The notes beneath the pieces were generated by a model. It was given only the letters and a program-made list of their open reading frames with translations, made no database searches and was not told the DNA's origin. This document shows, one piece after another, positions 11,274 through 54,012 of a stretch of DNA of 64,000 nucleotides (position 1 is the stretch's first letter; each line of letters begins with the position of its first letter). The position numbers and the translations under genes are program-made. The stretch comes from a plasmid. The DNA lies in the NCBI RefSeq assembly GCF_056746865.1, contig NZ_JBWKMP010000003.1; one strand, given 5' to 3'.

Positions 11274-11387
11274 GCTAAAAGCTAGCTTAATTTTCTAACA
11301 CAGTGTGTTTTTATACACTGTTGATCCGACGGCACGTGATCGAGTAGGATCGCGGTCACTGCTCCGGTAGCGACTGCCAAAAAAAGC

Positions 11388-11412
11388 AAAAGCCGCTGAG
11401 TAGCGGCTTTTG
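11388..11412 (+). terminator. Rho-independent terminator
   Basis: aagccgct-gagt-agcggctt followed by tt. Confidence 0.55.
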
Positions 11413-11472
11413 GGTGTATAAATCCACTGGCATAGATTTATACGGTAGATAGATTTTTCACGGAACTATCTG

Positions 11473-12435
11473 GTGAGTATTTTAAATTCAGTTTCAGTTA
11501 CTTTCAACACTTCTGAGTATAAAAACAACACTGAATACCACAAAAAAATCAAAGGTCATCAGTTGAGTTTTTTTGCTCGTCATAGCGGTTTTCTTTCCCC
11601 TTCACATAGCGCCATTATTGCCGAGTTCGCCAACCTGGCCGGAGCTACCGATGAATACATGATCCGTCGCTCATATGCGGATATGTCCGAGATTACAGGA
11701 CGCAGTATTTCTACTGTGCGCCGGGCATTTGCCGAAGCGACGAAGTGCGGAATGCTTGTTAAACAGCATCAGGTAGCGAATAACAATGCTCAGGTGTGTA
11801 ACGTGTACCGGTTTACAACACAATTTCTCCACTTCATTCATGTAGCAATGGAGATAGGGAGTAAGCAGGGCATCAAATTTGCCAACGCCACAAAACTGGT
11901 TAAGCAGTTGATTTCAAAGGTTCGTTATTTTTTTGAAACTGGGAACCCCCTGTTCAAATTGAACAAGTCCCCCCATGTTCAAAATGAACAGCCAATAGAA
12001 AATAAGAGTCACTCTATAGCCAAAAGAAGAGAAAGATCATGCGCGGTTCAGCCAAAGGCTTCACCAGCAGATAGTTCTCAAGCGGATAATGGGGGGCTGG
12101 ATAAAAAACCAGTAATCAGGGAAGAACATACCAACCACTGCCTGGCGGCGGCAAAAGCGAGAGCTGCAAAGCGTCGTTCAGATGAGGGGCACGCAAAACG
12201 GCAGGCTCTGTATCGTACCGCTGAAAAGCTGGCAAAAAAATTTGCATGGATACGTAGTGCCGCTACAGCAGTGAATAAGCCTAAACAATCCAGTGCCCTG
12301 GATTTCTCAATGGATTATTCTGGCTCCCAGGGGTGTGCAACCATTTGTGAAGCCTTTGACCTGATGAAACAGCGTGGCTATCGGTCTGAATTTGACCGGG
12401 AAGACTGGTCAATTCCGGAGGGCTTTCGGGGATGA
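11473..12435 (+). CDS. Hypothetical protein with a winged-helix/HTH-like segment
   Basis: 320 aa ORF, GTG start by ORF track; segment MSEITGRSISTVRRAFAEATKCGML resembles a DNA-binding helix-turn-helix. Confidence 0.4.
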   Translation: MSILNSVSVTFNTSEYKNNTEYHKKIKGHQLSFFARHSGFLSPSHSAIIAEFANLAGATDEYMIRRSYADMSEITGRSISTVRRAFAEATKCGMLVKQHQVANNNAQVCNVYRFTTQFLHFIHVAMEIGSKQGIKFANATKLVKQLISKVRYFFETGNPLFKLNKSPHVQNEQPIENKSHSIAKRRERSCAVQPKASPADSSQADNGGLDKKPVIREEHTNHCLAAAKARAAKRRSDEGHAKRQALYRTAEKLAKKFAWIRSAATAVNKPKQSSALDFSMDYSGSQGCATICEAFDLMKQRGYRSEFDREDWSIPEGFRG

Positions 12436-12492
12436 TGTTGCGATTGACTGTACAATAACCGTGCGGCGGGAATTTCATCGCTCGAAAATGTA

Positions 12493-12522
12493 TGTTAGGA
12501 AATTAAATTGATGTTTCTAATC
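12493..12522. promoter_or_regulatory. Operator-like inverted half-sites (TGTTAGGAAA ... TTTCTAATCA)
   Basis: Member of the dispersed TGTTAGAAA/TTTCTAACA motif family. Confidence 0.45.
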
Positions 12523-12575
12523 AAGAATGTATGATTTACATTGTCACTAAAAAACAGCATTTGATAAAAATTCTG

Positions 12576-12604
12576 TTGATCTTTCTAATGTTCAGGCTTA
12601 TATT
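12576..12604 (+). promoter_or_regulatory. Sigma70-like promoter with an operator motif in the spacer, driving the immI-like module 1
   Basis: TTGATC, 17-bp spacer containing tttctaatg, then TATATT. Confidence 0.45.
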
Positions 12605-12611
12605 CATGCCG

Positions 12612-12850
12612 TCGTAGCAAATTCTGCGACCAGGTTTGACAGCCTGAATACTTACGCGGACAACCGCACATTTCCGATATTGCGGTATTTTTGTGTCCGT
12701 AAAACCACGTTACGCCCGAATTATGGTGGGGCGTGATGGGGAGGCTTCGGCCTGCTGGTTTCGTAAGTGCCAGTCTGTCAACCCTGTCACGTCCTGCCAC
12801 CTGTTTGACAGCGGGTCGCAGGTTGTTTATCAACTTACGAGGCCGTAACT
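12612..12850 (+). ncRNA. Candidate c4-like antisense RNA / structured leader upstream of the icd-like gene
   Basis: About 240 nt without an ORF between promoter and icd-like start; tttgacag (12632, 12811) complementary to ctgtcaac (12773); P1 immI uses a C4 antisense RNA at the equivalent position. Confidence 0.35.
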
Positions 12851-13075
12851 ATGGTTAATGCCAATCATTGCTCACGTCCAGAATTCATCTGGCGTTTCCA
12901 CTCCCTGCAAAAACATTGTGATCACTTCGCAATTGCCGCAACTGAAAAAGAAGCCCGTTCTCTGATCCCTGATCAGTATGGCGTTCTCACTGGTCGTTTC
13001 TCTACTTCCCCACAACCAAACACTAATCCCTGGTATCGCAATATTACCAATCCCGGCATTGCGGAGGCTCACTGA
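12851..13075 (+). CDS. Icd-like small protein (immI-like module 1)
   Basis: 74 aa; paralogous to 54810-55025 (shared EFIWRF...AATE.EAR motif); stop overlaps the start of the antirepressor-like gene. Confidence 0.55.
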   Translation: MVNANHCSRPEFIWRFHSLQKHCDHFAIAATEKEARSLIPDQYGVLTGRFSTSPQPNTNPWYRNITNPGIAEAH

Positions 13076-13782
13076 TGGATATCTGCATTCTCGAAAAACT
13101 ATCAATGACCAGCATTGAGATTGCGGAGCTGGTGGGAAGTCAACACTCTGACGTTAAACGTAGTATTGAGCGTATGGTTGCTCGAAGCATTATCCGAAAA
13201 CCGCCAATGGCTGTTTTCGAAAAAATCAATAACTTAGGATTGCGTCGTGGCGTTGAGGCTTACGTCTTCGAAGGCGAGCAAGGCAAACGAGACAGCATTA
13301 TTGTCGTTGCGCAGCTCTCTCCCGAATTCACCGCCCGGCTGGTGGACCGCTGGCGCGAACTGGAAGAACAAGTACGCCAGCCGTTGACCGAAATAGAGAT
13401 GATCGCTGCAATGGCTGCGAATGCAGTTCAGCAGCAAAAGCGGCTTCATGCTGTTGAGTCAAAGGTTAGCCAGGTCGCTGAAACCGTCGAGCAGATCAAG
13501 AAAGGCAACATACCAGAAGGCTACATTGGCTACCGCCAACTGGCGGCGAAATGCGGCCTGACTGAAGCCAAATGCCGTAACCTGGTCAACGCTTACCGGA
13601 TCCCCACAGATACGCATGAGTTTTTGACGCCAGAGGGGGTATTGTCGCGTCGTACTATTGTGGCCTTATCTCCCTTCATGAATGCCTTTACCCTGATGAT
13701 GTCGGAGGCTGAACACCGAGGAAAACGCTGGTATCACCCAAGGATGGGGCAATTCCAGGTAATCGGTTGGGGAGGCGAGTGA
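13075..13782 (+). CDS. Antirepressor-like protein (Ant/Rha-KilA-type N-terminal domain), module 1, possibly truncated
   Basis: Paralogous to 55025-55966 over the N-terminal and middle regions (identical block EGEQGKRDSIIVVAQLSPEFTARLVDRWRELE); ORF ends early compared with the paralog. Confidence 0.6.
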   Translation: MDICILEKLSMTSIEIAELVGSQHSDVKRSIERMVARSIIRKPPMAVFEKINNLGLRRGVEAYVFEGEQGKRDSIIVVAQLSPEFTARLVDRWRELEEQVRQPLTEIEMIAAMAANAVQQQKRLHAVESKVSQVAETVEQIKKGNIPEGYIGYRQLAAKCGLTEAKCRNLVNAYRIPTDTHEFLTPEGVLSRRTIVALSPFMNAFTLMMSEAEHRGKRWYHPRMGQFQVIGWGGE

Positions 13783-13979
13783 TGGACATCATGCAGGCGG
13801 TAAAAAAAATCGGGGAAGGACAGGCTGAAGTGTGCCGCCGTAAAGCATGGAGTGTTGGTGTATGGGTCTGGCCTGATAATAGCTCTACTACTGGATGGTT
13901 TTGTATTAATGGATACCAGATCCGGGAAGTCGATTTATCGACGGCGGATGCAGTCGGTAATGATTGGATCGTAACTTGA
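13767..13979 (+). CDS. Separate-frame ORF matching the C-terminal DUF2829-like part of the antirepressor paralog (frameshifted ant or ant2-like)
   Basis: CRRKAWSVGVWVWPDN...ADAVGNDWIVT aligns with the C-terminus of 55025-55966; overlaps the 13075-13782 ORF by 16 nt in another frame. Confidence 0.4.
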   Translation: MGRRVMDIMQAVKKIGEGQAEVCRRKAWSVGVWVWPDNSSTTGWFCINGYQIREVDLSTADAVGNDWIVT

Positions 13980-13987
13980 AGTGTGAT

Positions 13988-14012
13988 GCCCCGGCTTGGC
14001 CGGGGCTTTTTT
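13988..14012. terminator. Bidirectional rho-independent terminator between ant-like (+) and the peptidase gene (-)
   Basis: gccccggc-ttg-gccggggc followed by tttttt. Confidence 0.6.
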
Positions 14013-14496
14013 ATGCCTCATTAGTTGAGGTTGCTGCGTCTCCGACTGGTAACAGAGCTGTATTGCGTGGTTCGCCAGCAGGCCAGCGATAGCCAGACAC
14101 TCTTGATGTTGGGAATGCGCGAATATTAACAGCATCCCCCTGGTTCCCACCCAAGACAAGCAGATCGCCATTGGCGCGGTGTCCGACAACAAAGCCTACA
14201 TGCCCACCGCCTGCGCGAGTAAATACAACGATACATCCGTATGCCGGTGTATCTAATTTCTCGCCCCAATCCAGATAGGATTTTGCCGACTCAAATCTTG
14301 TTGAGCGGATACCTACACGTTCCAGCATTGCACCAACAAATGCAGCGCACCACGGCGTTTCGTCGTCTTTAATTCCGCTGCGCTTAATATCCCGCCAGAA
14401 CTGAACGATCTCAGGATTGTGTTTCGCTCCTTTTATTTCGGTGACTCCAATATTTTTACGGGCCTCAATAAGCCAGCGAGGTTCAATGTTTGCCAT
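14011..14496 (-). CDS. NlpC/P60-CHAP-like protein (TIGR02594-type), putative cell-wall peptidase
   Basis: 161 aa; conserved Cys in PWCAAFV and His in GGGHVGFVV, consistent with a papain-like Cys-His peptidase. Confidence 0.55.
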   Translation of the reverse strand: MANIEPRWLIEARKNIGVTEIKGAKHNPEIVQFWRDIKRSGIKDDETPWCAAFVGAMLERVGIRSTRFESAKSYLDWGEKLDTPAYGCIVVFTRAGGGHVGFVVGHRANGDLLVLGGNQGDAVNIRAFPTSRVSGYRWPAGEPRNTALLPVGDAATSTNEA

Positions 14497-14633
14497 ATAT
14501 TTCTCCCGCTCATGGGTTAATAAGTAGGCAAACTATGGTGAGTATGTGATTTTGACGGTAGTGTCGTTCATCCCTGAAAATAACATTCTCCATACCCTCT
14601 CAAACCGAACCGCTTAAGGCGGATTTAACGGTT

Positions 14634-28380: not shown

Positions 28381-28410
28381 TGTTAGCAAATTGATATTAA
28401 TTTTCTAATA
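28381..28410. promoter_or_regulatory. Operator-like palindrome TGTTAGCAAATTGATATTAATTTTCTAATA
   Basis: Dispersed motif family member upstream of the lpa-position gene. Confidence 0.45.
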
Positions 28411-28487: not shown

Positions 28488-28880
28488 ATGGAGCAAATCA
28501 GTAGCGCCGAAATAGCGGATATCATGATCAGGGCTAACTGCTATCTGACGGTCACCGAAATCACCAGCCGTGCAAAAGCACAATATCCTCACCTTCATGT
28601 GTCGCGCGTAAACGTAAATAACATCATACGTTTTTTTGTTCGTTCCAGTCGTGCCATTTGCGAAATAGACGACCGCGTATACCCCCGGAAATATTGGTTA
28701 CATGGCCTGAATGGATACCAGTTCAAGGTGCGCGGGCGCACTCCTGAATTCGGTCGGCTGTTGGTGAAAAACACCAACCGAAAGATAGAAGCTCAATTAC
28801 GAAAGGAGCAGCGTCAGTTGGTGGCGATGACTAACCAGCTATGGAACGCCGCTGTGAAAAAACGTGAGGCTTCCCTATGA
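28488..28880 (+). CDS. Hypothetical regulator-like protein in the Lpa position (immediately upstream of pacA-like)
   Basis: 130 aa, RBS ggggg-ataa-ATG, overlaps the pacA-like start; function inferred from P1 synteny only. Confidence 0.4.
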   Translation: MEQISSAEIADIMIRANCYLTVTEITSRAKAQYPHLHVSRVNVNNIIRFFVRSSRAICEIDDRVYPRKYWLHGLNGYQFKVRGRTPEFGRLLVKNTNRKIEAQLRKEQRQLVAMTNQLWNAAVKKREASL

Positions 28881-30241
28881 CGTTAATTAACTGGGAAGCG
28901 CATCGAGCTAAGTTCCTGGAGTTAAGAGAAGAAACCGGGATCACCATAAAAGAATATTGCGAGCAGCATGACCTCAGCTTTAACACCGCCAGAAAGCATC
29001 TCAATATGAAAAAAAATGAGGTTAAGGCGAAAGCTAAGGCTACCGGGAAAAGTACAAAACAGCGCGCAAAAAGCAGCGCCACCGGCTCAAAAAAAGAGCA
29101 AAAAAAGGCTAATAAAAGCACAGAATTTACAAAAACTGACAAATCGTTGGCTGGTGGACGGTTCCGCGCCATGCCGCAAAAACAAAATGCGGATCACAAA
29201 GAAAAGCCAAGTAATAACAACAAGATACACAAGGATGTGAAGGGATCATTTTGTGATGAAATGGGAGAAATGATCCCTAAAAGCAGCGATAAAGCCCAAC
29301 GAAACAAGGGATCATTGCAAATGATCCCTGATTCATCAGCTCAAAGCACCACTTTGCCTGCCACCAACGTCGCCCGTGAGATGATGAAGAACGGCGCGAC
29401 TGAACATTTACGACTTGCGATACAGATGGCGCAGGAACGAGCAATTCAGTATCAGGCTATCGTTGACCAGGAAGCGGAGCGACTACAGGAAGAGATTGAC
29501 GCCCTCGGTGATACACAGCCAGAGGGGATGCACCCAGGGCAGCGTCTTCTCGGACTGATCAGCGATGCGGCCTACTACATGAATGACTTTATCACCAGGC
29601 TGGCAGCCATCTATCAGAACGAGCAGAAGCTACGCCAGGGGGATGAAAAACTTGCGCAGGGCGCGCGTCAGCAGGCATTCAGGGAGGCTGAGGCCAGAGA
29701 AAAACTGGCGATTGCCCGCCTACAAGCCGAGCAGCGTGGCAAGGAGATTGAGTATCGCATTGGCGCTGACGCACGCGCCGCCAGGGTTATCGCCGCCGCT
29801 ATACGTATGCGTGAGCGCGAGGAGCTGGATGATATAGGTGTTGCTGAATATATCGAGCGGCAGGGCGTCAGTGTCCCGGCTATCCTGGCGGCACGAGCGG
29901 CAAAAGCGATCTCACTTCTGGAGCCTCCGGTTTCTGACGTTAACGATGTTGATGATGAGCAACTGGATAAAGAGGCGAAGCAGTTTGCCGAGCAACAAGC
30001 TGGACTCCCACAATGGCTTGCACAACGCCGGGCTGAAGTAGCGAAAATCGTTGATAGGCTTGGGATGGGGGATTACGACCGGAACGGAGAACGTAAAGCC
30101 GGTGAATTTGAGGCCAATGATGAAGACCTGAATATAGACCCTTCCGCGACGGCTGATATCTACGGTGATTATGACGCGGGGGATACCGGTTTTGATGCTG
30201 TAGATGACGAGATTGCGATAGACCAGCCGGAGGATGACTAA
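28877..30241 (+). CDS. PacA-like terminase small subunit (contains pac-like hexamer cluster)
   Basis: 454 aa immediately upstream of and coupled (ATGA) to the large terminase; HTH-like N-terminus, acidic C-terminal tail; internal cluster of Dam-site hexamers like the P1 pac site inside pacA. Confidence 0.55.
   Translation: MTLINWEAHRAKFLELREETGITIKEYCEQHDLSFNTARKHLNMKKNEVKAKAKATGKSTKQRAKSSATGSKKEQKKANKSTEFTKTDKSLAGGRFRAMPQKQNADHKEKPSNNNKIHKDVKGSFCDEMGEMIPKSSDKAQRNKGSLQMIPDSSAQSTTLPATNVAREMMKNGATEHLRLAIQMAQERAIQYQAIVDQEAERLQEEIDALGDTQPEGMHPGQRLLGLISDAAYYMNDFITRLAAIYQNEQKLRQGDEKLAQGARQQAFREAEAREKLAIARLQAEQRGKEIEYRIGADARAARVIAAAIRMREREELDDIGVAEYIERQGVSVPAILAARAAKAISLLEPPVSDVNDVDDEQLDKEAKQFAEQQAGLPQWLAQRRAEVAKIVDRLGMGDYDRNGERKAGEFEANDEDLNIDPSATADIYGDYDAGDTGFDAVDDEIAIDQPEDD
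29191..29327. promoter_or_regulatory. pac-like site: five GATC-containing hexamers (GGATCA x3, TGATCC x2) including two inverted copies of AATGATCCCT
   Basis: Hexamers at 29191, 29243, 29271, 29309 and 29322; aagggatcatt and aaatgatccct each occur twice. Confidence 0.5.
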
Positions 30242-31749
30242 TGGCTGGTGGTCGTAAGATTAAGTGCGTCACCAGTGATCCACGTTGGCGCGATATGGTT
30301 ATCAGGTATCGATACAACTTTACCCAGGCGGTTGTCGATATTTTTGGGATGTTCCCCTCCCACCAGCAGCAGCAGATCATTCAGTCAGTGCAGGAGACGG
30401 GGAGCAGGACGACCGTTACGTCCGGACACGGAACGGGTAAGTCGTCCCTTACCGCGATGTTGCTACTAATTTTTATGATCCTGTTCCCCGACGCCCGCGT
30501 CATTATTGTTGCGAACAAAATAGGCCAGGTAAAAACAGGCGTATTCAAATACGTGAAACAGTTTTGGGCGAATGCTGTTAAGCGCCACGGCTGGTTACAG
30601 ACCTATTTTGTCCTGTCTGACACCATGTTTTATGAGCGTTCCCGTAAAGGGATATGGGAAGTGCTCTGTAAAGGTTATCGACTCGGTAACGAAGAGGCAC
30701 TGGCGGGGGAGCACGCGGAGCATTTACTGCTAATCCTTGATGAAGCATCGGGCATATCCGATAAGGCGATTAACGTCATGACGGGGGCGTTAACGCAGAA
30801 AGATAACCGTATGCTCATGCTTTCCCAGCCTACGCGTCCAAGCGGTTACTTTTATGAATCTCACCATTCAAGGGCAAAGGCAGAAGGCAATCCGGAAGGT
30901 GTCTGGACGGCAATAGTCCTTAACTCTGAAGAATCACCATTCGTTGAACCGAGCTTTATTCGTGAGAAATTGCTGGAGTACGGCGGCAGGGATTCGCTGG
31001 AGTACATGGTTAAGGTGCTGGGCCAGTTCCCGCGTGCAATTAACGGGTATTTGCTTGGTCGTGATGAGTGCGACCGCGCCGCACGGCGTAAAGTGTTGCT
31101 GGAGAAAGATTGGGGCTGGGTAGCGACCGCTGACGTCGGTAATGGTCGCGATAAATCGGTGCTCAATATATGCAAAGTATCCGGTTATCGTGAGAAACGA
31201 CGCGTTGTGAACTTTAAGATACTGGAGATGCCAGGCACTATGGACCCGTTGGCTTTTGCCGACTTTATCTATAACGAATGCACTCCTGATAAATACCCGA
31301 ACATCACCATTGCTGTGGATGCTGATGGCTTTGGTTCAGATACGTGTGCGCAGCTTGTCCGCCGTGGTGCTAATCCCGTTCGCATCCGTTGGGGTAAGCC
31401 TATGTTTGCGCTAAGAGACAGAGAACGCTTTGTCAATCAGCGTGCTTACGCCAATATTATGGCAGGGGATGCCATTAAATCCGGGCGTATGCGTATCGAT
31501 AGTGACCCCAAAACCGCAGATCAGGCATCAAAAATCCCGTATATGCTTAACGAAGAAGGGAAGGTAGCGATGATGCGCAAGGAGCACATGCGGCAGAAGT
31601 TAAACATCAAGTCACCGGACAGATGGGATACCTACTGCTTCACTATGCTGGTGGATTACGTGCCTGCTAATGAAGACATTGGCGCAGAACTCGCAACATT
31701 CCGCGATCAGGTGTTGGCAGAAGTGGATATTCCTGATATTGACATTTAA
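30241..31749 (+). CDS. PacB-like terminase large subunit
   Basis: 502 aa; P-loop GHGTGKSS, Walker B LLLILDEASG, C-terminal nuclease-like region with VDADGFG; coupled to the upstream small-subunit gene. Confidence 0.75.
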   Translation: MAGGRKIKCVTSDPRWRDMVIRYRYNFTQAVVDIFGMFPSHQQQQIIQSVQETGSRTTVTSGHGTGKSSLTAMLLLIFMILFPDARVIIVANKIGQVKTGVFKYVKQFWANAVKRHGWLQTYFVLSDTMFYERSRKGIWEVLCKGYRLGNEEALAGEHAEHLLLILDEASGISDKAINVMTGALTQKDNRMLMLSQPTRPSGYFYESHHSRAKAEGNPEGVWTAIVLNSEESPFVEPSFIREKLLEYGGRDSLEYMVKVLGQFPRAINGYLLGRDECDRAARRKVLLEKDWGWVATADVGNGRDKSVLNICKVSGYREKRRVVNFKILEMPGTMDPLAFADFIYNECTPDKYPNITIAVDADGFGSDTCAQLVRRGANPVRIRWGKPMFALRDRERFVNQRAYANIMAGDAIKSGRMRIDSDPKTADQASKIPYMLNEEGKVAMMRKEHMRQKLNIKSPDRWDTYCFTMLVDYVPANEDIGAELATFRDQVLAEVDIPDIDI

Positions 31750-31750
31750 A

Positions 31751-31770
31751 AGCCCCGGCGATTCGGGGCT
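31751..31770. terminator. GC-rich hairpin between convergent pacB-like and the repressor-candidate gene
   Basis: agccccg-gcgattc-ggggct. Confidence 0.4.
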
Positions 31771-31786
31771 TGTGGGTGGCTTGCGA

Positions 31787-32824
31787 TTACCAGAGTTTTG
31801 CCGCGTACATCGTTTGTGTGAATGTGTACCCATAGCGTTCTTCAACGCTTTTACCGTATTTTTTCCTGGCTTCAGTAAGGCGGATGCCTGTCAGGTCATC
31901 GCCGGAGGCAATCATAACTTCCAGTAGTTCCAGGTCCATTTTATCCAGCCTTGCCATTGCATCTTTAGCCTCTTGAATTTTCCGGCTAACGATCTGGTGT
32001 ATGGCTGGATCGGCTTCGGCCAGCATTTTATCTGATTTGTTTTTTAAACTCTGATTGCGGATATCAATGTTTCTCAGGATATATGACTTCACGACGTAGC
32101 TTGGCTGCTGCTTTTCCAGATCACGAACCCGATAAAGGTCAAATTCGCCGAGAAGTCCGCACGGAAGCGGTTTAATGCCAGTGTAAATGGTAAGGGTGCG
32201 GCGCTCACCAACGTTGTTAACAACGGGAATCTCTGTGTTTGCTTTTTTTGCAAAGATCAGCGCACCGTGCGTACCCACTCTGAAGCGTGAAAGTCCATTG
32301 TTGCCCTCAATATTGGTGGTAATCACCACATCGGTATAACCTTCTTTTCTTGCGCGGTATACCTCGCCCTCACGTTCAGCGGCGAAGAATCTGCGTTCTT
32401 CTTCAAGCGCACCGACAACCTGTGAAAATATCCTGTTTTTCATGCTTTTCTTTATAGTTTTATCGTATTTTTTCAGCAGGTCTTCGCGCGTAAATGTTCT
32501 CGTTGTGGTTGCGCTTTGCATAACGATGTGCGTACTCTGATTAGTATCCTCAACAATGAATGGGATCGGTAAATAAACCGACTCAACAATGTTTGAGGCT
32601 TTGTCATCATCCTTGCGACACAGATCAACAAAGGCTTTCCATTCGGCTATGCATTTTTCAGCTTCTTCTAATACAGCCGGATCATGTGTTAATGCAACAT
32701 GGCGAAATTCCTCGCCAACATAACTGGTATCATGGAAAACAGAGTTTGCGACCACCAGCTCTTTCCACCTTTCAGCGGTTTGCAGGAACCGTTTGTACTC
32801 ATTCTCGATCGACTTCTTACTCAT
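31787..32824 (-). CDS. Hypothetical 345-aa protein; candidate immunity repressor (P1 c1 position: convergent with pacB, next to lox/cre)
   Basis: Best start is the internal ATG (MSKKSIENEY) with RBS aggaa; an operator motif TGTTAGAAAA lies immediately upstream on the coding strand; no recognisable domain by eye. Confidence 0.45.
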   Translation of the reverse strand: MSKKSIENEYKRFLQTAERWKELVVANSVFHDTSYVGEEFRHVALTHDPAVLEEAEKCIAEWKAFVDLCRKDDDKASNIVESVYLPIPFIVEDTNQSTHIVMQSATTTRTFTREDLLKKYDKTIKKSMKNRIFSQVVGALEEERRFFAAEREGEVYRARKEGYTDVVITTNIEGNNGLSRFRVGTHGALIFAKKANTEIPVVNNVGERRTLTIYTGIKPLPCGLLGEFDLYRVRDLEKQQPSYVVKSYILRNIDIRNQSLKNKSDKMLAEADPAIHQIVSRKIQEAKDAMARLDKMDLELLEVMIASGDDLTGIRLTEARKKYGKSVEERYGYTFTQTMYAAKLW

Positions 32825-32843
32825 TATTCCTACTCGATTTAGT

Positions 32844-32853
32844 TTTCTAACAT
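32844..32853. promoter_or_regulatory. Operator motif TTTTCTAACA in the promoter of the repressor-candidate gene
   Basis: Dispersed motif family member; a second copy at about 32927-32941. Confidence 0.45.
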
Positions 32854-33019
32854 AAAAGTCCTGTGACAAATTTATGCTGAATAACAAGGTGAGTAAAGGA
32901 TAAAACCGCTTTTTTTTGATTGTTCCTATTAGAAAATGTAACCAGGAGCGGCTACCGCATGGCTGACGGATTTGCGAAGTGATCTGGTCGGTGTTTTTTT
33001 GGGAAAAAAGTTCCGATTT

Positions 33020-33053
33020 CTAACTTTAAATAATTGGCATTATTTAAAGTTAG
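33020..33053. promoter_or_regulatory. lox-like recombination site (13-8-13): CTAACTTTAAATA ATTGGCAT TATTTAAAGTTAG
   Basis: Perfect 13-bp inverted arms around an asymmetric 8-bp spacer; same architecture as loxP and 9/13 arm identity to it; 150 bp upstream of the Cre-like gene. Confidence 0.7.
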
Positions 33054-33204
33054 GCTATAATCTCCAGTAAACAGGCAGTATTGACAAGGATGAAAAATCA
33101 TGCCTCGAATCAAAGGCTTGAATTTTGAAAATTAACTTATAACTACCCTGTCAGTTTTCTATTTTTCACGTAGCGTTATCTGTATATAGAGGTTTAATAG
33201 TTTC

Positions 33205-34233
33205 ATGGGTGAACTAGTTATCTCCGGCGGTTCTGGTGGTTTTCTGCGCGATATTGGCACCGAATACCAGGAAGCTGCAAAAAACTTTATGCAGTTCATG
33301 AACGACCAGGGAGCTTATGCTCCAAATACGCTTCGAGATCTCCGTCTGGTGTTTCATTCCTGGGCGCGGTGGTGTAATTCGCGCCAGCGCCCCTGGTTCC
33401 CGATTACGCCGGAAATGGCCCGCGAGTATCTTCTCCAGTTGCATGAGGCCGATCTGGCCTCGACCACCATTGATAAGCACTATGCCATGCTTAACATGCT
33501 GCTTTCGCAATGTGGCCTCCCGCCGCTGTCGGACGATAAAAGTGTGTCTCTGGCCATGCGGCGCATCCGGCGCGAAGCGGCAACGGAAAAAGGCGAGCGA
33601 ACAGGCCAGGCTATACCGTTGCGGTGGGATGATCTGAAATTGCTCGACGTGTTGCTGTCCCGTTCCGAGCGGCTGGTGGACCTGCGCAATCGGGCGTTTC
33701 TCTTCGTGGCATACAATACCCTGATGCGTATGTCAGAAATCTCGCGCATCCGCGTCGGAGATCTGGACCAAACAGGTGACACTGTAACGCTGCATATTTC
33801 ACACACGAAGACCATCACGACCGCCGCCGGACTTGATAAGGTGCTTTCTCGTTACACTACCGCCGTACTGAACGACTGGCTGGAGGTGTCCGGACTTCGA
33901 GAACATCCGGACGCGGTGCTATTCCCGCCAATACACCGCAGTAATAAGGCCAGAATCACGACAACGCCCCTTACTGCACCTGCAATGGAGAAAATATTCA
34001 GCGATGCCTGGGGGTTGCTGAACAAACGAGATGCCACGCCGAACAAAGGAAGATACCGGACGTGGACAGGCCATAGTGCGCGTGTTGGTGCGGCAATTGA
34101 TATGGCTGAGAAACAGGTGTCAATGGTCGAGATCATGCAGGAAGGTACATGGAAAAAGCCCGAAACACTTATGCGATATTTGCGCCGTAGCGGGGCATCC
34201 GTTGGTGCAAATAGTCGCCTGATGGACTCATAA
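33205..34233 (+). CDS. cre: Cre-like tyrosine site-specific recombinase
   Basis: Colinear similarity to P1 Cre as I recall it (SWARWCNSRQRPWFP..., NMLLSQCGLPPLSDDKSVSLAMRRIRRE, WTGHSARVGAAIDMA, C-terminal Tyr in LMRYLRR); ORF-track start is non-ATG. Confidence 0.9.
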   Translation: MGELVISGGSGGFLRDIGTEYQEAAKNFMQFMNDQGAYAPNTLRDLRLVFHSWARWCNSRQRPWFPITPEMAREYLLQLHEADLASTTIDKHYAMLNMLLSQCGLPPLSDDKSVSLAMRRIRREAATEKGERTGQAIPLRWDDLKLLDVLLSRSERLVDLRNRAFLFVAYNTLMRMSEISRIRVGDLDQTGDTVTLHISHTKTITTAAGLDKVLSRYTTAVLNDWLEVSGLREHPDAVLFPPIHRSNKARITTTPLTAPAMEKIFSDAWGLLNKRDATPNKGRYRTWTGHSARVGAAIDMAEKQVSMVEIMQEGTWKKPETLMRYLRRSGASVGANSRLMDS

Positions 34234-34277
34234 ATTAATTTTCTAACAACCTTTTTAGACAGTGCATTTTAATGTAA

Positions 34278-34306
34278 AGTACCCTCGCCTATTGCGGAGG
34301 GTACTT
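34278..34306 (+). terminator. Strong hairpin after cre-like (no T-run)
   Basis: aagtaccctcgc-ctatt-gcggagggtactt. Confidence 0.4.
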
Positions 34307-34650
34307 TGCACAATCGTATTACGGAATCAAAACGCTTCACTGTTGACGGTTACACCATAACCTTCACTGCGGGCGTTAAGCGCGACCAGGCGGTCGTGGT
34401 GTTCGGTGTTATGACCGGACTTGATGCCGTTCCCGTATTTACCCTCGAAAAAAACTGGCGAAATCTGGAGGAAGCTGAACGCTACGTCCGGAAAGTAACC
34501 GTCATTGCTGCTGAAAAACTCCTGGCCCACTATCAGGAAAATTATCGCGCTATGACCGAGAAAATTAACCATGTTTTCACTCGCCCCACCAGCGGCTTCA
34601 TTGCCCCTGATGCGAATGCCGGGCGCTATCCGGCAAGGGGGCGCAAATGA
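34306..34650 (+). CDS. Hypothetical protein (start uncertain, TTG or internal ATG)
   Basis: 114-aa ORF. Confidence 0.3.
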   Translation: MHNRITESKRFTVDGYTITFTAGVKRDQAVVVFGVMTGLDAVPVFTLEKNWRNLEEAERYVRKVTVIAAEKLLAHYQENYRAMTEKINHVFTRPTSGFIAPDANAGRYPARGRK

Positions 34651-35135
34651 AAACTTACTACCCATCCCTGAACTGTTATCCAACCACTAATCCTGAGCTG
34701 TCAGGGAAACTTCTGTCCCTCCTGGCTGATAGTCCTGATGAATGGCATAAGCCTGGTGATATCAACACACAGTTCCCTGAGTACGGGTGTATCCGCACCC
34801 GAAATGAGCTGAAGAACCTCATTGCTCACGGTTTTGTCCGTCACCGTAGCGGGAAAGGCTATCAGTTGGCTATCCCACAAGGAGAGGCAAGAGAACTCTT
34901 TGGCTATCGAGAAAGCCAGACGCAAGCGCGGGTGATCGCAGAAATTATCCGTAATGGCAGCGTCTATGCCCGCAAATTCTGGCTGTCTGGCGGTGGTGAT
35001 GCATCACAGTTCTTGCGTGCTGTGCGATCGCTGGAGGAACAAGGTGTTATCGAGAATACCTGCGTCTCCGTTCCGACCGCTCCGCATATCAAACGCCGGA
35101 TTTATACATTTACCCGGAGAGCTAAAAAGCAATGA
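34647..35135 (+). CDS. Hypothetical protein (162 aa)
   Basis: ATGA-coupled ORF in an operon with dut. Confidence 0.45.
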   Translation: MKTYYPSLNCYPTTNPELSGKLLSLLADSPDEWHKPGDINTQFPEYGCIRTRNELKNLIAHGFVRHRSGKGYQLAIPQGEARELFGYRESQTQARVIAEIIRNGSVYARKFWLSGGGDASQFLRAVRSLEEQGVIENTCVSVPTAPHIKRRIYTFTRRAKKQ

Positions 35136-35626
35136 TTAACGTGAAAGTGAAACGCCTTCATCCGGCGGCAAAACTCCCCGTTTACGCCACCGCCGGATCG
35201 GCGGCGATGGATTTTGTTGCTGTTGAAATAACGCCGGGTATCGATAGCAACGGCGCTATTTCCTCAAGCTGGTGGGTGCATACCGGCCTCGCTATGGCGA
35301 TCCCTCCTGGCTGGTGTCTGAAACTTTATCCTCGTTCCGGATTGGGCTGCAAAAAGCATACGCGCCTGGCTAACTGCGTAGGAATTATCGACTCCGATTA
35401 TCGCGGTGAAATCAAAGCAAAACTGATTACAGATCCCGGTGGTGAAGGCGTTTGCCTCAAGCCAGGAATGGCGGTCATGCAAGGCATTTTTGAGCGTGTT
35501 GAACCGGTATCGCTGGTAGAAGTTGATGAACTCGATGAAACAGAGCGAGGTGCTGGTGGCTTTGGTAGCACATCGGAAGACCGCATTGAAATCAAGCGTA
35601 CACCGCTTCAGTACGCAAAGTTTTAA
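35132..35626 (+). CDS. dut: dUTPase (trimeric dUTP pyrophosphatase)
   Basis: All hallmark motifs: AAMDF, PRSGLG, GIIDSDYRGEI, RGAGGFGSTS. Confidence 0.85.
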   Translation: MINVKVKRLHPAAKLPVYATAGSAAMDFVAVEITPGIDSNGAISSSWWVHTGLAMAIPPGWCLKLYPRSGLGCKKHTRLANCVGIIDSDYRGEIKAKLITDPGGEGVCLKPGMAVMQGIFERVEPVSLVEVDELDETERGAGGFGSTSEDRIEIKRTPLQYAKF

Positions 35627-35640
35627 GTAGAGGAAAGGCT

Positions 35641-36291
35641 ATGAATAACATGCCAACGAAAGAGCTTTTTAAGTTCCTTCCCAAATACAAAGCTCACAAA
35701 AACGTTAGTGCATCGAAAATTAAAAATGTTGTTATTTTCGGAGTAACTGATGCCCCACTTTGGGGCTGCATCGAACTCGTTGAACCAAAAGGGGCAACAG
35801 TTTGTGTTGACGCAATGTTTTTACAAAAACACCGACCAAAAACTGGCGGGTATCTGATCGTTTATGAAAACGGTTATCTGTTCTATGCCCCGGAGAAACC
35901 ATTTGAGGAATGCTATGGCCTGGTTAACGACGCCTCCAAAAATGGAACCACGGTCATCATTACGGATGACAACGGCGTGATGATTAATCTTACTGGGAGC
36001 GTAACTATTTCTGCTGGTGGCATCACCACCCAGCAAGAAGAAATCGACCTTGAAGCAGCCGACTTCTCTGATGCGCTAATGTGGTTGAAGGAAGGCAAGA
36101 AAGTTGCCCGACGCGAGTGGAAAGGCGAAAAGCAATTCTGCTGGTTAGTTCTCGCTGGAAGCGTCAATTTACACGGCATTCACGTTCCTTATGGTGACCA
36201 TTTTGTATTGAAAGATGCACAAAATATGGACAGCGTTTGGTTGCCGTCTGTGGATGATTTACTGGCCTGTGACTGGTTTGTTGTGGAGTGA
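35641..36291 (+). CDS. Two-domain protein with a C-terminal DUF2829 (Tad2-like) domain
   Basis: C-terminal FSDALMWLKEGKKVARREWKGEKQFCWLVLAGS ... VWLPSVDDLLACDWFVVE fits the DUF2829 pattern; N-terminal ~140 aa unassigned. Confidence 0.6.
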   Translation: MNNMPTKELFKFLPKYKAHKNVSASKIKNVVIFGVTDAPLWGCIELVEPKGATVCVDAMFLQKHRPKTGGYLIVYENGYLFYAPEKPFEECYGLVNDASKNGTTVIITDDNGVMINLTGSVTISAGGITTQQEEIDLEAADFSDALMWLKEGKKVARREWKGEKQFCWLVLAGSVNLHGIHVPYGDHFVLKDAQNMDSVWLPSVDDLLACDWFVVE

Positions 36292-48228: not shown

Positions 48229-48270
48229 AATGTATACCGACTCTGTTTTGTTCCGAGCGGTAAAATAATA

Positions 48271-48300
48271 TGTTAGAAAATTAAAATCAATATTCTAACA
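48271..48300. promoter_or_regulatory. Operator palindrome TGTTAGAAAATTAAAATCAATATTCTAACA
   Basis: Inverted half-sites of the dispersed motif, upstream of the minus-strand operon. Confidence 0.55.
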
Positions 48301-48332
48301 CGGTTTTGAGTGCATAAACGATGTGTTCAGGA

Positions 48333-49820: not shown

Positions 49821-50584
49821 TGGCTGCCTCCTTTGCGAAGCTGGTCGGCGAACAAACGTACACTAGACGCTTCACTGCGTAGAAACTTAACGGCATAATC
49901 AAAACCACCTCGTTCTGCGTCGTCTGCTCCGTTGTCGAGGTTATCTGCGTACATCTCTACCCCCTGCGCACGTACTTCAGCCAGGAAAGCATCGGTGGCT
50001 GGGGTATCAACACGGATACTGTCGCGCAAGATGAAAAATGCATTGAGCATTCCAGTCTCTGGCACTTCATCCTGATGCTTCTCATACGCATCAAGAGCCT
50101 TCATCATCTCAGCTCCGAATGGTTGAGGGTGCACAGACTTCAGCTCCGCATTCTCCGCCGCCAGCACCGCGCGTTCGCTCTCCAGTTCTGTAATGCGCCG
50201 TCTTGCAGCATCCAGTTCAATCGACAATTTTCCCAACTGCTCTTTATGCTTCTTGTATTCCTGATATGCGTGCCAAGACTGACCTTTGCGCACACTATCC
50301 GTGATATCAGTAATCTGTTCTGGTGTTAGCGTGGTCAGTGGCTGTGCTGGGAAAATCAGCACTTTCCCAGCATCCCAATCAAAACCCACCTGAATTGACT
50401 GAACCTCAACTGATGGTGTTGAACCGATGCGACCAGGCGAATGAACAACGATCGTTACATCCATATCGCGACGATGGCTGTGGTTGTTGGACAAAATACG
50501 ATTCACCAACTCCGAGAATTTGGAAAATTTCATGCTGATTCCCTTTGCTCTTCCTGGATAATGTTGTTGCAATCTTTCACGCAC
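49817..50584 (-). CDS. ead/Ea22-like family protein
   Basis: [14 protein letters not shown] block and C-terminal [11 protein letters not shown]. Confidence 0.5.
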
Positions 50585-50853
50585 TCGTTGCAGATGAAAA
50601 CGTTGTCCCCGGCAATTAACTTTTTAACGGTGTGCTGGGATTTGTTGCAGAAGCTGCAATAAAGCGTTGGACTGGCTGATATGGATGGTGCGCCAGATGT
50701 CAGCCGCGCGATGTCGTTCTTGCGACGCAATATCACACGGCTGCACTCGACCAGCATCTCCGGGGATATATCCTCCTCCGTGGCGAGCGCCTCCAGACGT
50801 TCGAGCAAGCGAAATACTTTTTCCTGGGTGATTGCAGAATGCGATGTGGTCAT
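50530..50853 (-). CDS. ClpX-type zinc-finger domain protein
   Basis: [36 protein letters not shown] matches the ClpX N-terminal zinc-binding domain pattern. Confidence 0.5.
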
Positions 50854-50854
50854 C

Positions 50855-51529
50855 TCACTCTCCTTTGATGCGAATGCCAGCGGCACGGGAGTCATTCCAT
50901 CGCTTTACTTCTTCACGAATTACGTCAATGCATTCTTTCGAATCCATTAGGTAATCTTCATCAAAAAGCCTTTCCTGTTCGTTTTCTATCGCAACAATGA
51001 TTGCTTCAACTAACTTTTGTGCCTGAGAACCACTTTCTAACTCTGCAATGCGCTTCTCTGCGGCTTCCAGCTTCTCGCGCATATCGTCAACGTACTCGAC
51101 CAGAGATCCGCCAGCAGGAATTTCGCACTCCTCGACCAGTTGGAAGTAGATATCAGCTGCGGCCCGTGTGTTGCTATGCCTAGCGTCGCCCATCTCACCT
51201 TCACGAAGAGCATCGCGTTCGGCGGTAAGATTGGCTATTTTGCTGTCTTTGCCTTCAAGCTCAACGCGCAGCTTCCCTACCGTTAGCGCAATATCCTCGT
51301 TCTCCTGGTCGCGGCGTTTTATGTATTGCTGGTTTCTTTCCCGTTCATCCAGCAGCGCCAGCACAATGTGTGGCGTTATCAAGGACTCAAATTCGGCAAC
51401 AGCTTGCTCACCTCGCTTGTAATTCTTAATCCCACCTAAATCTTTCGCGTTCTGTGCCGCCTCACGCAGCGCCAGTGTGTCGATGTCGATGTCGATGTTG
51501 CTCATTGTGCCTCCTCGATTTCGTCCCAT
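50855..51529 (-). CDS. ead/Ea22-like family protein
   Basis: Same conserved block as 43941-44693. Confidence 0.55.
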
Positions 51530-51735
51530 TCCACCCAGGCATTCTCTCCATCAGCATCGATTTCACCTTTGTGACCGCATTTGGAACAAACGGCCTCATC
51601 ACCCGCCCACAAAGAATCTTTGGTTACCGACCATCCTGTTACCCTGGCTTTGCCGTGCTGGCACCTAGGGCAATCATCAAGCCATTCGACTTCGACCGTT
51701 GAAGGACCAAATCCATGTTCAGTTCGGATGCTCAT
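51502..51735 (-). CDS. Small zinc-ribbon protein
   Basis: CPRCQHG ... CSKCGHKG. Confidence 0.4.
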   Translation of the reverse strand: MSIRTEHGFGPSTVEVEWLDDCPRCQHGKARVTGWSVTKDSLWAGDEAVCSKCGHKGEIDADGENAWVEWDEIEEAQ

Positions 51736-52235
51736 GACTGAACTCCTTTGCGAATCTGTTCCGCCCATTCTTCAAGGGATTTCTCCGCATATTCACCGGA
51801 CAGGCCATCAATCGGATGCGGTTCATTAGCCAACTCTTCTTTCGCTGACAAAATCATGCGTGTAACGTCGAAAACTTCACGCAAAGACTTATTGATAAAT
51901 CCGTGATTGAACGCAGCAGCAAGACGGCTTGCGGTGTAGTTAATCCCCTCGTTGCGTGCCTCCGCACGTATTTCAGCCAGGAAAGCGTCGGTGGCTGACA
52001 TATTTCCTGTTGCCTTCATGGCCTTCAAAATAACCAGAACGCCATCTTGCCCAACCAACTCGGAGATAATCTCAGTGTTGTCGCCAACAACCTCACAGAA
52101 TGCCTGAACAGCTTTACGAGCAAGTGCATTCTCCGCCGCCAGCGCCGCGCGCTCTTTCTCAAGTCGGGAAATTTCCGTTACATACTCAGCGTTACGCTCT
52201 GCCAGTTGTGCGGGCGTTAAACCTTCAGACTTCAT
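51732..52235 (-). CDS. ead/Ea22-like family protein ([12 protein letters not shown] block)
   Basis: Paralog of 44690 and 49817. Confidence 0.5.
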   Translation of the reverse strand: MKSEGLTPAQLAERNAEYVTEISRLEKERAALAAENALARKAVQAFCEVVGDNTEIISELVGQDGVLVILKAMKATGNMSATDAFLAEIRAEARNEGINYTASRLAAAFNHGFINKSLREVFDVTRMILSAKEELANEPHPIDGLSGEYAEKSLEEWAEQIRKGVQS

Positions 52236-52542
52236 GCACTCTCCTTTCGAAATAAACGTACTGATTAATCATGCCCAGGGGCATTTCGAACTTTTCTGCG
52301 ATCTCACGGCGGGGAACGCCACACTGATGAAGCTGCCGCGCCAGCTCTATATCGCTCTGCCGGTATTTGGCTGACTGGTGAAAGTCACCTTTCAGAATCA
52401 TGCTGATCCGCAATTGCCGCGCTTTAGTCCTGACAGCACCACCGGTACGCCCGATCAGTCTCCCAATACCCTCGACTGTCATAGTCCCGGCGCACTGGCG
52501 GAGTATCATGATTTCTGCCCTTCCCCATCCCCGCCAGCTCAC
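52225..52542 (-). CDS. Small HTH protein (sigma-70 region-4-like)
   Basis: C-terminal HTH-like RREIAEKFEMPLGMINQYV. Confidence 0.4.
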   Translation of the reverse strand: MSWRGWGRAEIMILRQCAGTMTVEGIGRLIGRTGGAVRTKARQLRISMILKGDFHQSAKYRQSDIELARQLHQCGVPRREIAEKFEMPLGMINQYVYFERRVHEV

Positions 52543-53150
52543 GCAGAACTCCTTCTAACCAAAAGAACGCCATCTTCAGAAACAACGTTGCAGGACTTCA
52601 GGTAATTCATTGCCTCTTTCGGTAATGGATTCTTTGGATCGGCGCTTGCCAGGGATTTCGATAACCTCATGATAAATTTGATCATTACCTTCTGACGGAG
52701 CTTGTGCTCATGGGATGCAGACAGGTAATAGGAAATGGTATGGGCTAAACGCTCACGAAGCTGTTCTGTGCCGTGATATACAGCAGCGATATCACGCAGT
52801 GCATTGACCAGTTCCCGGTAAATATGCGGAGCAACCTGGCATTCAATGTTGGTTGGTGACTCATAAATTACATTCAGCCCCAGCTTTTGAGCCAGCTCGT
52901 GCTCTGCACGAGCGCCAACTGATTCCTCCCACCCCTTGAGCAAATAGACCGCATTAGCCGAACGCACCATTGCAAGGCAAATATCCATGTATTCGCTCTG
53001 GCAGAGGCCAGCAGGTAACAGCGCCGGATTCAGAACAATATGCCCTACCTCCATCAGCTCTTTTGCTTTCGAAAAAAACGCTGTGCGGTTGTAGTCGGGA
53101 TAACCAGTCATCGGACCCGCGATGTAAATTTTCATAATGCGTTTTGACAT
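52539..53150 (-). CDS. DUF4406 (nucleoside 2-deoxyribosyltransferase-like) domain fused to a C-terminal domain shared with 39980-40615
   Basis: MKIYIAGPMTGYPDYN ... LLKGWEESVGARAEHELAQKLGLNV fits DUF4406; C-terminal APHIYRELVNALRD segment is paralogous to 39980-40615. Confidence 0.5.
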   Translation of the reverse strand: MSKRIMKIYIAGPMTGYPDYNRTAFFSKAKELMEVGHIVLNPALLPAGLCQSEYMDICLAMVRSANAVYLLKGWEESVGARAEHELAQKLGLNVIYESPTNIECQVAPHIYRELVNALRDIAAVYHGTEQLRERLAHTISYYLSASHEHKLRQKVMIKFIMRLSKSLASADPKNPLPKEAMNYLKSCNVVSEDGVLLVRRSSA

Positions 53151-53345
53151 CAAAGTTTCCCCAGGAACGTTACGCAAAAGTTAATGAGAGCAAAGAGTTC
53201 AATGCCCAGCTCAAACAACGCCAGGACAGTGAAAAACAGGGCATATAGCAACCCAATTTCTGTACCGGATTGCTGGTGGATTGCACTTATTGCGACAAGC
53301 ATCATGACCTCCTGATATAGCGTCTGAAAAAAGTATCTTCATTTT

Positions 53346-53377
53346 GTGTTAGAAAATCAATTTTGATTTTCTAACAC
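53346..53377. promoter_or_regulatory. Perfect operator palindrome GTGTTAGAAAATCAA-tt-TTGATTTTCTAACAC
   Basis: 15-bp arms are exact reverse complements; sits between the divergent minus-strand operon and the ref-like gene. Confidence 0.6.
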
Positions 53378-53421
53378 TTTTGATCAACCATAGCGGCGAT
53401 GTAGACAAACCGGGTATTTCT

Positions 53422-53997
53422 ATGAAGCAAAGCTATTGGGAGAAACAGACACAAAAAGCCCTGCAAAAACTGGCTGATCCGAAATGGCGGGAGGAACAAA
53501 GGGCAAAGCGTCTTCAGCAAGCTCAACGCCAGCAGCAGCGTGCGCGAGAAAAAGCCGCATCGCCTGAATATCGGCAAAAGAAAATTGAAAAAGCGAAGCA
53601 ATATGAACAGCGAAGAAAAGAGAAGGCCGCTTCTGCTCCTGTCAAAAAAACTCGCGCGTCACGCGGCCTGAAAGGCAGAACACTCACAGCAGATGAGCGC
53701 CGGATACAAACTGCCATCGGTGCTCTCCCCTGCATTGCCTGCCATATGCACGGACAGCATAGCCCTGTGGTATCCCTGCACCACATCTTCGGGAGAACAG
53801 CAGAAAACGCGCATAAATACGTCCTCCCTTTGTGTAAATGGCACCATCAACACGCAGCGCCAGCAGAGATCCGCGAGCAATACCCCTGGTTGGTTCCTGT
53901 TCATGCTGATGGAAAAATAGGCGGCAAAGCAGATTTCAGGCGGCACAATGCTGATGAAATGACGTTGTATCAGATGGTGACTGAATTAATAAATTAA
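53422..53997 (+). CDS. Ref-like HNH-type nuclease with a basic disordered N-terminal region
   Basis: Lys/Arg/Glu/Gln-rich N-terminal ~80 aa followed by Cys/His cluster CIACHMHG ... HHIFG ... CKWHH; same architecture as P1 Ref as I recall it; start could be TTG at 53380. Confidence 0.45.
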   Translation: MKQSYWEKQTQKALQKLADPKWREEQRAKRLQQAQRQQQRAREKAASPEYRQKKIEKAKQYEQRRKEKAASAPVKKTRASRGLKGRTLTADERRIQTAIGALPCIACHMHGQHSPVVSLHHIFGRTAENAHKYVLPLCKWHHQHAAPAEIREQYPWLVPVHADGKIGGKADFRRHNADEMTLYQMVTELIN

Positions 53998-54012
53998 TTT
54001 TCTAACATTTTA
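53990..54012. promoter_or_regulatory. Operator-like motif AAATTAATTTTCTAACATTTTA
   Basis: Dispersed motif family member. Confidence 0.45.

Follow-up and report, generated by a model that had tools for sequence, protein, structure and literature searches.

A dispersed, probable operator word in a D6-like phage-plasmid and the C1-family repressor predicted to read it

The 64,000-nucleotide stretch of plasmid DNA analysed here (NCBI RefSeq assembly GCF_056746865.1, contig NZ_JBWKMP010000003.1; hereafter the window) is, by sequence comparison, a D6-like member of the P1 group (P1 supercluster) of plasmid prophages. A short asymmetric motif recurs between its genes, and we predict, with a probability of roughly 0.85, that its sites are the operators of the resident C1-family repressor. 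We infer that the element carries the C1 regulon of a lineage with a different immC specificity, which would form a class separate from the P1 type. A circuit of this known kind, here with a different DNA word, is what one would expect in this phage group.

The motif, TTAATTTTCTAACA, has 16 matches in the window (both strands, up to two mismatches), whereas 100 dinucleotide-preserving shuffles averaged 0.66, with at most 4 in any one of them. A position weight matrix (PWM), 24 nt wide and built from the same 16 sites that it scores, gave 21–34 bits for these sites and 8.4 bits for the next best position in the window; second-order Markov control sequences held a mean of 0.4 sites at 12 bits or more. 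Because this matrix was trained on the motif sites themselves, we added a prior-free check, an unbiased 9-mer enrichment with no motif supplied, in which TGTTAGAAA was top-ranked (z 15), as high as the Chi octamer family. Applied to P1, this script placed the phage's known C1 operator word, TGCTCTAAT, at the top. Most of the PWM information is carried by TTTCTAACA (1.2–1.9 bits per position), with 1.6–1.9 bits per position in the CTAACA portion of the motif, and the TTAA portion and the motif flanks are softer. The recognised word is thus asymmetric, about 14–17 bp long, with the core ATTTTCTAAC(A).

None of the 16 sites falls within an open reading frame (ORF), in a window with a non-coding fraction of only 9.3% by a greedy ORF model; the sole overlaps are with the ref stop codon and with a doubtful TTG start. 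The claim of the first-pass annotation that a motif recurs in intergenic DNA here is confirmed. The strong sites form 12 loci, eight of them single and four inverted pairs, and every pair has an identical 14-2-14 layout with the heads together (TTAG-N18-CTAA). At the pair spacing, seven single sites have no partner half-site and the eighth, 12493, has a degenerate one. The perfect 15-2-15 palindrome that had been reported at 53346–53377 is exact. Of the 15 positions that had been listed, 12 are strong sites, and the other three (12581, 32927 and 33015) are weak or unsupported. The weak site at 32927 has a TTTCTAAT core and is supported by a block, TTTTCTAA, that is conserved at the same place in four lineages. 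Position 33015 was rejected as an operator: the match to TTTCTAAC at 33017–33024 overlaps the first four bases of the rox recombination site and is not conserved in D6, in Salmonella Typhi plasmid pK91 or in an Enterobacter plasmid.

The placement of the sites points to C1. In P1, C1 acts at 22 dispersed asymmetric 17-bp operators and represses RepL and Lpa among others (PMC8546580). Ten of the 12 window loci lie at the gene junctions of the C1 operators annotated in the P1 GenBank record, which are experimentally derived: repL, c4, pmgL/M, pmgR/S, the divalent Oban, lpa, c1, pmgT, ref and the ref stop codon/mat. It had been proposed that the motif controls the immI-like module, the VRR-NUC gene, the 402-aa gene, lpa, the repressor and ref, and in agreement with this a site precedes each of them and has a P1 counterpart. 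The further proposal of control over the lox/cre region (here rox/dre) did not hold, as the strong site at 34235 sits after dre and faces the next operon.

The word at these junctions is not that of P1. The P1 consensus ATTGCTCTAATAAATTT has no match with up to three mismatches in the window or in D6, by a search that does find the known P1 sites, and the D6-type word is absent from P1. The first-pass annotation gave this consensus correctly: P1 has an exact copy at 68667, and PMC8546580 quotes it. Its statement that the operator word here is unlike that of P1 stands as to the words being distinct but not as to their being wholly different, as TCTAA is common to both when they are read in one orientation (P1 GCTCTAAT, here TTTCTAAC). 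It had also proposed scattered P1-like operators under a heteroimmune repressor; C1-type operators of another specificity fit all that we computed, and "heteroimmune" is a term drawn from the sequence.

Phage D6 bears the same word at the orthologous junctions and at three loci beyond the window, and the remaining 30 kb of the plasmid closest to the window has one more strong site, beside the capsid gene (24302 in L010). Among the D6 loci is one at hrdC/gene 5. We aligned the orthologous upstream regions of the window, D6, S. Typhi pK91 and the Enterobacter plasmid, of which the last three encode C1 proteins 80, 66 and 40% identical to that of the window, respectively. In front of c1, lpa, the pmgS-like gene and ref, no block is conserved as well as the motif core, and the flanks drift.

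The candidate master repressor is the product of c1, which lies between pacB and rox/dre, its map position in both P1 and D6. The protein is 80% identical to D6 C1. The products of the neighbouring pacB and dre genes share 92 and 94% identity with their D6 counterparts, so that C1 has diverged faster while the operator word is unchanged. With P1 C1 the identity is 21% over 241 aa (BLASTP, pairwise E 1e-7), and each of the two proteins matches PHROG 1678 over its full length (E 1e-159 and 1e-140). A 12-sequence family alignment that includes P1 C1 has 11 invariant columns, with R41, R157, R159 and H186 among the invariant residues. The earlier identification of 31787–32824 as the repressor candidate is thus sustained by remote homology to P1 C1 and by its syntenic place between pacB and the recombinase site. 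The protein is far from the P1-type equivalog model phage_rep_C1 of NCBIfam (24 bits against a cut-off of 500); a Pfam-A scan gave no domain in the library used, its relatives bear a precomputed PF27008 label, and a sequence search of the Protein Data Bank (PDB) gave no match. The family is small, with 117 cluster representatives among 1.84 billion; some 150 plasmids encode a homologue of the C1 of the window. No helix-turn-helix (HTH) domain was found with Pfam-A and no HTH protein among the structural neighbours of C1. Unlike the sites of the dimeric helix-turn-helix repressors of the lambda type, most sites here are single and asymmetric, without two-fold symmetry.

The assignment of the element follows from several comparisons. 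The stretch 30000–36000 has 99.5% identity to E. coli plasmid NZ_CP085065.1 and about 82% to phage D6. Compared ORF by ORF, the window is collinear with D6 from coordinate 36283 to 1 and then from 91159 to about 64900, and its proteins are mostly 75–98% identical to those of D6 and 30–60% identical to those of P1 where a P1 homologue exists. It thus shares with D6 (MF356679, AY753669) and with D6-like Escherichia and Salmonella elements a collinear map, the same rox/dre, the C1 type and the motif junctions. The pairs at lpa and ref are intact in the window, whereas in D6 a strong site stands there beside a decayed partner. D6 is recorded as a diverged P1 relative, and its GenBank entries carry no operator annotation. 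With Rfam we found three tRNAs and two C4 antisense RNAs in the window, one C4 preceded by its target element c4-a1b1 and the other by an isrK-like RNA, and the element therefore has two c4-icd-antirepressor modules. The first C4 RNA is the same as P1 C4 except in one loop (GTAAGTG compared with ACTAACG), and the second is much more diverged. The sites and the features around them are listed in Table 1.

Table 1. Predicted C1 operators of the window, features adjoining them, and genes and RNAs of the regulon. Positions are those of the window; scores are PWM bits; operators at P1 and D6 counterpart junctions are named where there are any.
Feature	Position	Strand	Score (bits)	Context and counterparts
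Operator	11287..11300	+	24.9	Exact consensus; between pro and repL (lytic replication gene, 11473-12435); P1 OrepL/Op53; D6 site at same place (22462)
Operator	12493..12506	-	27.3	Before immI module 1; P1 Oc4/Op51, repL/c4 junction
Degenerate partner of 12493 site	12509-12522			Scores in 99.9th percentile
Promoter-like TTGATG-16-TATGAT	starts 12508			Adjoins operator 12493
Weak site, TTTCTAAT core	12577..12590	+	below PWM threshold	Within second promoter-like element; listed as 12581 in first-pass annotation
immI module 1: c4-a1b1	12598-12650
immI module 1: C4 RNA	12719-12804			First C4 RNA
immI module 1: icd	12851-13075
immI module 1: antirepressor	13075-13782
Promoter-like match, 10/12	22343-22370			Ends 26 nt before operator 22396
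Operator	22396..22409	-	21.0	Leader of VRR-NUC (pmgM-like) gene; P1 O26/Op82, upstream of pmgL-pmgM
Operator	23451..23464	-	31.9	21 nt upstream of 402-aa gene (D6 orf9, annotated pmgS-like), after a terminator hairpin; overlaps promoter-like -10 TATGTT (23449-23454); conserved block in three lineages; P1 OpmgR/Op86
Inverted operator pair, 14-2-14	24696..24725		33.7 and 29.0	Sites 24696 and 24712; head of tRNA/tciA region; DNA 3' of pair homologous to P1 68740-70206, preceded there by Obanab/Op72ab, the only divalent operator of P1
Promoter-like TTGATT-17-TAGAAT	starts 24728			Adjoins pair 24696-24725
Operator, single	24846..24859	-	27.6	120 nt deeper in tRNA/tciA leader; D6 equivalent 8908/9064
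Inverted operator pair, 14-2-14	28381..28410		24.4 and 28.9	Sites 28381 and 28397; 78 nt upstream of lpa; ATTAATTTTCTAA kept in three lineages; P1 Olpa/Op94
lpa	28488-28880			Late-promoter activator
pacB	30241-31749
c1	31787..32824	-		Candidate master repressor, 345 aa; ATG at 32824; coordinates include stop codon
Operator	32839..32852	+	27.0	14 nt before c1 ATG, ahead of AGGA ribosome-binding site; block TTTATGTTAGAAAAC conserved in window, D6, pK91 and Enterobacter plasmid; P1 Oc1/Op99
Weak auxiliary operator TACATTTTCTAATA	32927..32940	-	below PWM threshold	Upstream of c1; 3 mismatches
rox recombination site	33021..33052			TAACTTTAAATAAT-TGGC-ATTATTTAAAGTTA; outside the regulon; rox annotated in D6
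dre	33205-34233
Operator	34235..34248	+		Exact consensus; 2 nt past dre stop codon, 58 nt before orf117-like-to-dut operon; same place in D6 (89943), pK91 and Enterobacter plasmid, and in Citrobacter plasmid with another word; no P1 counterpart
Inverted operator pair, 14-2-14	48271..48300		33.1 and 25.6	Sites 48271 and 48287; 43 nt upstream of pdcB-pmgT (minus strand); D6 pair at 80704-80743; functional counterpart P1 OpmgT/Op88; pmgT 97% identical to that of P1
Palindromic operator pair, perfect 15-2-15	53346..53377		31.9 and 30.1	Sites 53347 and 53363 (14-2-14 layout, 53347-53376); between ref and divergent early operon; TTTTGTGTTAGAAAATCAATTTT kept in three lineages; P1 Oref/Op2a
Operator	53994..54007	+	31.3	Exact consensus; overlaps ref stop codon; small ORFs and immI module 2 follow; P1 Omat/Op2b, likewise overlapping ref stop codon
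immI module 2: isrK-like RNA	54545-54623
immI module 2: C4 RNA	54668-54755			Second C4 RNA
immI module 2: icd	54810-55025
immI module 2: antirepressor	55025-55966

From this map we propose how the regulon would work. In the plasmid-prophage state, C1 would occupy the 16 strong sites and two or three weak ones at the 12 loci of the window, with at least one further locus in the remainder of the element. Repression of repL, of the two c4-icd-antirepressor modules, of lpa and of ref would keep the lytic genes silent, and the early operons headed by the pmgM-like and pmgS-like genes, the tRNA/tciA region, pdcB-pmgT and the operon after dre would be repressed as well. Through the site just before its own start codon, C1 would limit its own synthesis. 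The mode would be promoter occlusion or a roadblock near each transcript start: promoter-like hexamers touch some sites (a -35 at 12508, a -35 at 24728 and a -10 at 23449), and other operators, such as 22396 and 32839, lie within leaders. Given the seven single sites without a partner half-site, we infer that one C1 molecule reads one asymmetric site. For P1 C1, monomeric reading of the operators is established. The four head-to-head pairs with their fixed 2-bp gap suggest stronger or cooperative repression at these loci, and one might speculate from the structural model that a C-terminal helical hairpin of C1 (residues 233–307) is the contact surface.

Compared with the immC regulon of P1 and P7, the element has a homologous repressor at the same map position and asymmetric operators spread over the genome, mostly monovalent, with a divalent one heading a tRNA/ban-type operon. 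The targets are also the same, namely repL, c4/ant, lpa, c1, ref, the ref stop codon and the pmgM, pmgS and pmgT regions. The differences from P1 lie in the word (TTAATTTTCTAACA here and ATTGCTCTAATAAATTT in P1, neither genome holding that of the other), in the repressor, which is about 60 aa longer at the C terminus, and in the pairs, of which there are four head-to-head 14-2-14 pairs here but one overlapping tail-to-tail pair in P1. There are moreover two c4-icd-ant modules here, with antirepressors of other families, and no Ant1 or KilA homologue was found. P1 C1 is modulated by Coi and Lxc, and the c4/ant module can override it (PMC8546580). The circuit here is not a copy of that of P1, because homologues of Coi, an antirepressor encoded upstream of c1, and of the corepressor Lxc are absent; in a tblastn search with both, neither the window nor D6 gave a match below E 0.3. 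The distance from c1 to rox is only about 195 bp. At the P1 lxc position, directly after the ulx homologue, the window has an ORF of 86 aa (21959–22219, plus strand) with no similarity to Lxc (E 5.6).

More distant relatives carry yet another word. The plasmids of Pantoea and Citrobacter that we compared encode C1 proteins about 30% identical to that of the window and have neither the P1 nor the D6-type word. Enriched there is a third word, AAWTCTAAGG, with AATTCTAAGG reaching z 26 in the Citrobacter plasmid. It lies upstream of c1 in Pantoea and upstream of lpa in both Pantoea and Citrobacter. In the Citrobacter plasmid it is also found in front of ref and of the VRR-NUC operon, past the ends of the recombinase gene and the pmgS-like gene, and in two further gaps, one between pro and the gene next to it and one between hrdC and the baseplate gene; copies in this plasmid (NZ_CP114569) are found, for example, at 26032, 26212, 13547, 13618 and 39796. 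The C1-like repressors of the P1/D6-like plasmids of Pantoea (pEuc3), Citrobacter and Leclercia are of the same family, at the same map position and with the same junctions, but with a different word. All three words have CTAA in common, followed by T in P1 (GCTCTAAT), by C in the D6 type (TTTCTAAC) and by G in the third (WTCTAAGG).

A D6-type repressor is also found outside a complete phage-plasmid. S. Typhi pK91 (NZ_CP029965), a conjugative multiresistance plasmid with BREX, a type IV secretion system (T4SS), qnrS1 and blaTEM-1, bears at 59977–67834 an IS26-truncated D6-like fragment that extends from hot to dre and c1 and holds an intact c1 (66% identical) and two operators. This orphan repressor might give immunity against D6-like phages.

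Several points weigh against reading the motif as the C1 operator. For this element and for D6, the link of C1 to the motif is deduced from sequence, and the covariation of the two is confounded, as whole genomes diverge together. Among the plasmids compared, we found no recombinant that uncouples the C1 type from the motif. The absence of Coi and Lxc homologues noted above also counts here, as does the geometry of the pairs, which is TTAG-N18-CTAA in this element but CTAA-N8-TTAG at P1 Op72ab and at the Pantoea pair (26149–26170 in L009). When the P1 and D6-type words are aligned in the CTAA register they match at 11 of 17 positions but with opposite pair geometry, and in the register that preserves geometry their identity is poor. 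Finally, the promoter-like hexamers near the sites are weak matches and are no commoner than in shuffles; because of this, the proposed mode of repression is indirect reasoning.

These points leave some room for a different regulator, either a second DNA-binding protein encoded by the element or a host factor exploited by it, that would bind the motif while C1 acts elsewhere: the tie of C1 to this DNA is not a physical one, and the confounding applies here too. We nevertheless regard this as improbable. The loci match the mapped C1 operators of P1 one for one, one site lies directly before c1, and the enrichment showed, besides Chi, no other word that might be the C1 operator in place of the motif. 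A conserved host factor, moreover, would not require the word to change between clades at fixed junctions, as it does. We consider it more unlikely still that the motif is a promoter element, resembling an extended -10, or the recognition box of Lpa. Although TGTTAGAAA resembles TGnTATAAT at four of six hexamer positions, and several sites abut or overlap promoter-like hexamers, the single sites are found in either orientation with respect to the gene downstream (three compared with five) and four loci are palindromic pairs. The genes that follow the sites are regulatory or early ones (c1, lpa, repL and c4), which fits neither a promoter element nor an Lpa box, whereas the heads of structural and lysis operons are without the motif, there being no match near 2439, 8576, 14634 or 58624. 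The late promoters of P1 bear a different box, AAGTGACTT; as a possible identity for the motif this P1-type box was rejected, being a different word with one strict match in the window (58491–58509). Chance, finally, might be invoked on the grounds that intergenic DNA is AT-rich and that TTAATTTT, the 5' part of the motif, carries little information. This explanation is refuted by the shuffles, none of which exceeded four matches, and it accounts neither for the information lying in CTAACA nor for a core that is conserved across lineages while its flanks diverge; we give it next to no weight. C1 remains in our view the probable reader of the motif. We found nothing relevant to the motif string, to D6-like operators or to their heteroimmunity in the searchable papers, and the D6 word has possibly been published elsewhere.

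The predicted structure of C1 offers a possible basis for asymmetric recognition. An AlphaFold2 model, made from the 12-sequence alignment, has a mean predicted local distance difference test score (pLDDT) of 87.5. Among solved structures, Foldseek matched it to four entries of Tus (E 7e-8 to 7e-7) and to nothing else below 0.18. In AFDB50 the relatives of C1 come first, some of them annotated as "Repressor protein C1" or "Primary repressor of lytic functions", directly followed by dozens of entries named "DNA replication terminus site-binding protein" (E 1e-8 to 1e-6). At the level of sequence, hhalign gave the C1–Tus pair a probability of only 0.8% and 4.6% with C1 profiles of 12 and 104 sequences, with a weak alignment that is collinear; the Tus profile in these comparisons was poor, as the homologue search returned only close relatives (at least 81% identity). 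C1 does not match the NCBIfam Tus model (TIGR02648), and its relatives are assigned to PF27008, whereas Tus belongs to PF05472.

Tus binds its asymmetric Ter site as a monomer. C1 and Tus of E. coli would share a fold, predicted in the case of C1, and both use asymmetric sites of roughly 14–23 bp. They differ in that Tus arrests replication forks at chromosomal Ter sites, whereas C1 is predicted to be a transcriptional repressor, and in the C-terminal helical extension of C1, which is without a Tus counterpart; its hairpin (233–307) reaches well past the end of P1 C1, near residue 268. A Tus-like clamp, as modelled, would account for the length and asymmetry of the operator and for the existence of single sites, and operator-bound C1 acting as a polar roadblock is a possibility. 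More broadly, we would give about even odds to the proposal that the C1 repressors of the P1 and D6 types are Tus-fold monomeric clamps, related to Tus by common descent, which have acquired at least three specificities through the bases around CTAA. We found no paper that links C1 and Tus in the searchable literature; the relationship may be recorded in family databases or elsewhere. The Ter core TTGTAAC (of TerB, next to tus) agrees with TTCTAAC at six of seven positions, an agreement that by our estimate is expected by chance over the offsets and strands, and we did not use it as evidence.

Two other features of the DNA around the sites were observed. The rox site is directly followed by GCTATAAT, a perfect -10 hexamer that faces dre (window 33021–33060) and is conserved in D6. 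In the tRNA/tciA leader, an inverted repeat (24760–24835) between the operators at 24696 and 24846 has a Chi octamer in each arm (GTGCTGGTGGGGA ... TCCCCACCAGCAT). Chi, GCTGGTGG, with its extensions, ranks among the most strongly over-represented words of the window, D6, P1, L008, L009 (Pantoea) and L011 (Citrobacter), with, for example, 45–51 copies in about 41 kb.

D6-like phage-plasmids occur widely in E. coli, Shigella and Salmonella, clinical lineages among them (bioRxiv 10.1101/2025.09.12.675607). Their lysis-lysogeny control has so far been annotated only by analogy with P1, and the operator word and site map now provide a testable regulon, with targets for engineering or curing. Immunity groups could be predicted from sequence by which word, that of P1, that of D6 or the third, an element carries. 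With sites all over the genome, immunity cannot be changed by swapping immC alone, and this spread may explain the lasting linkage between repressor and backbone. The Tus-like fold, if confirmed, would give the first structural rationale for the monomeric recognition of asymmetric operators by P1 C1, and would point to a possible evolutionary source or relative for Tus.

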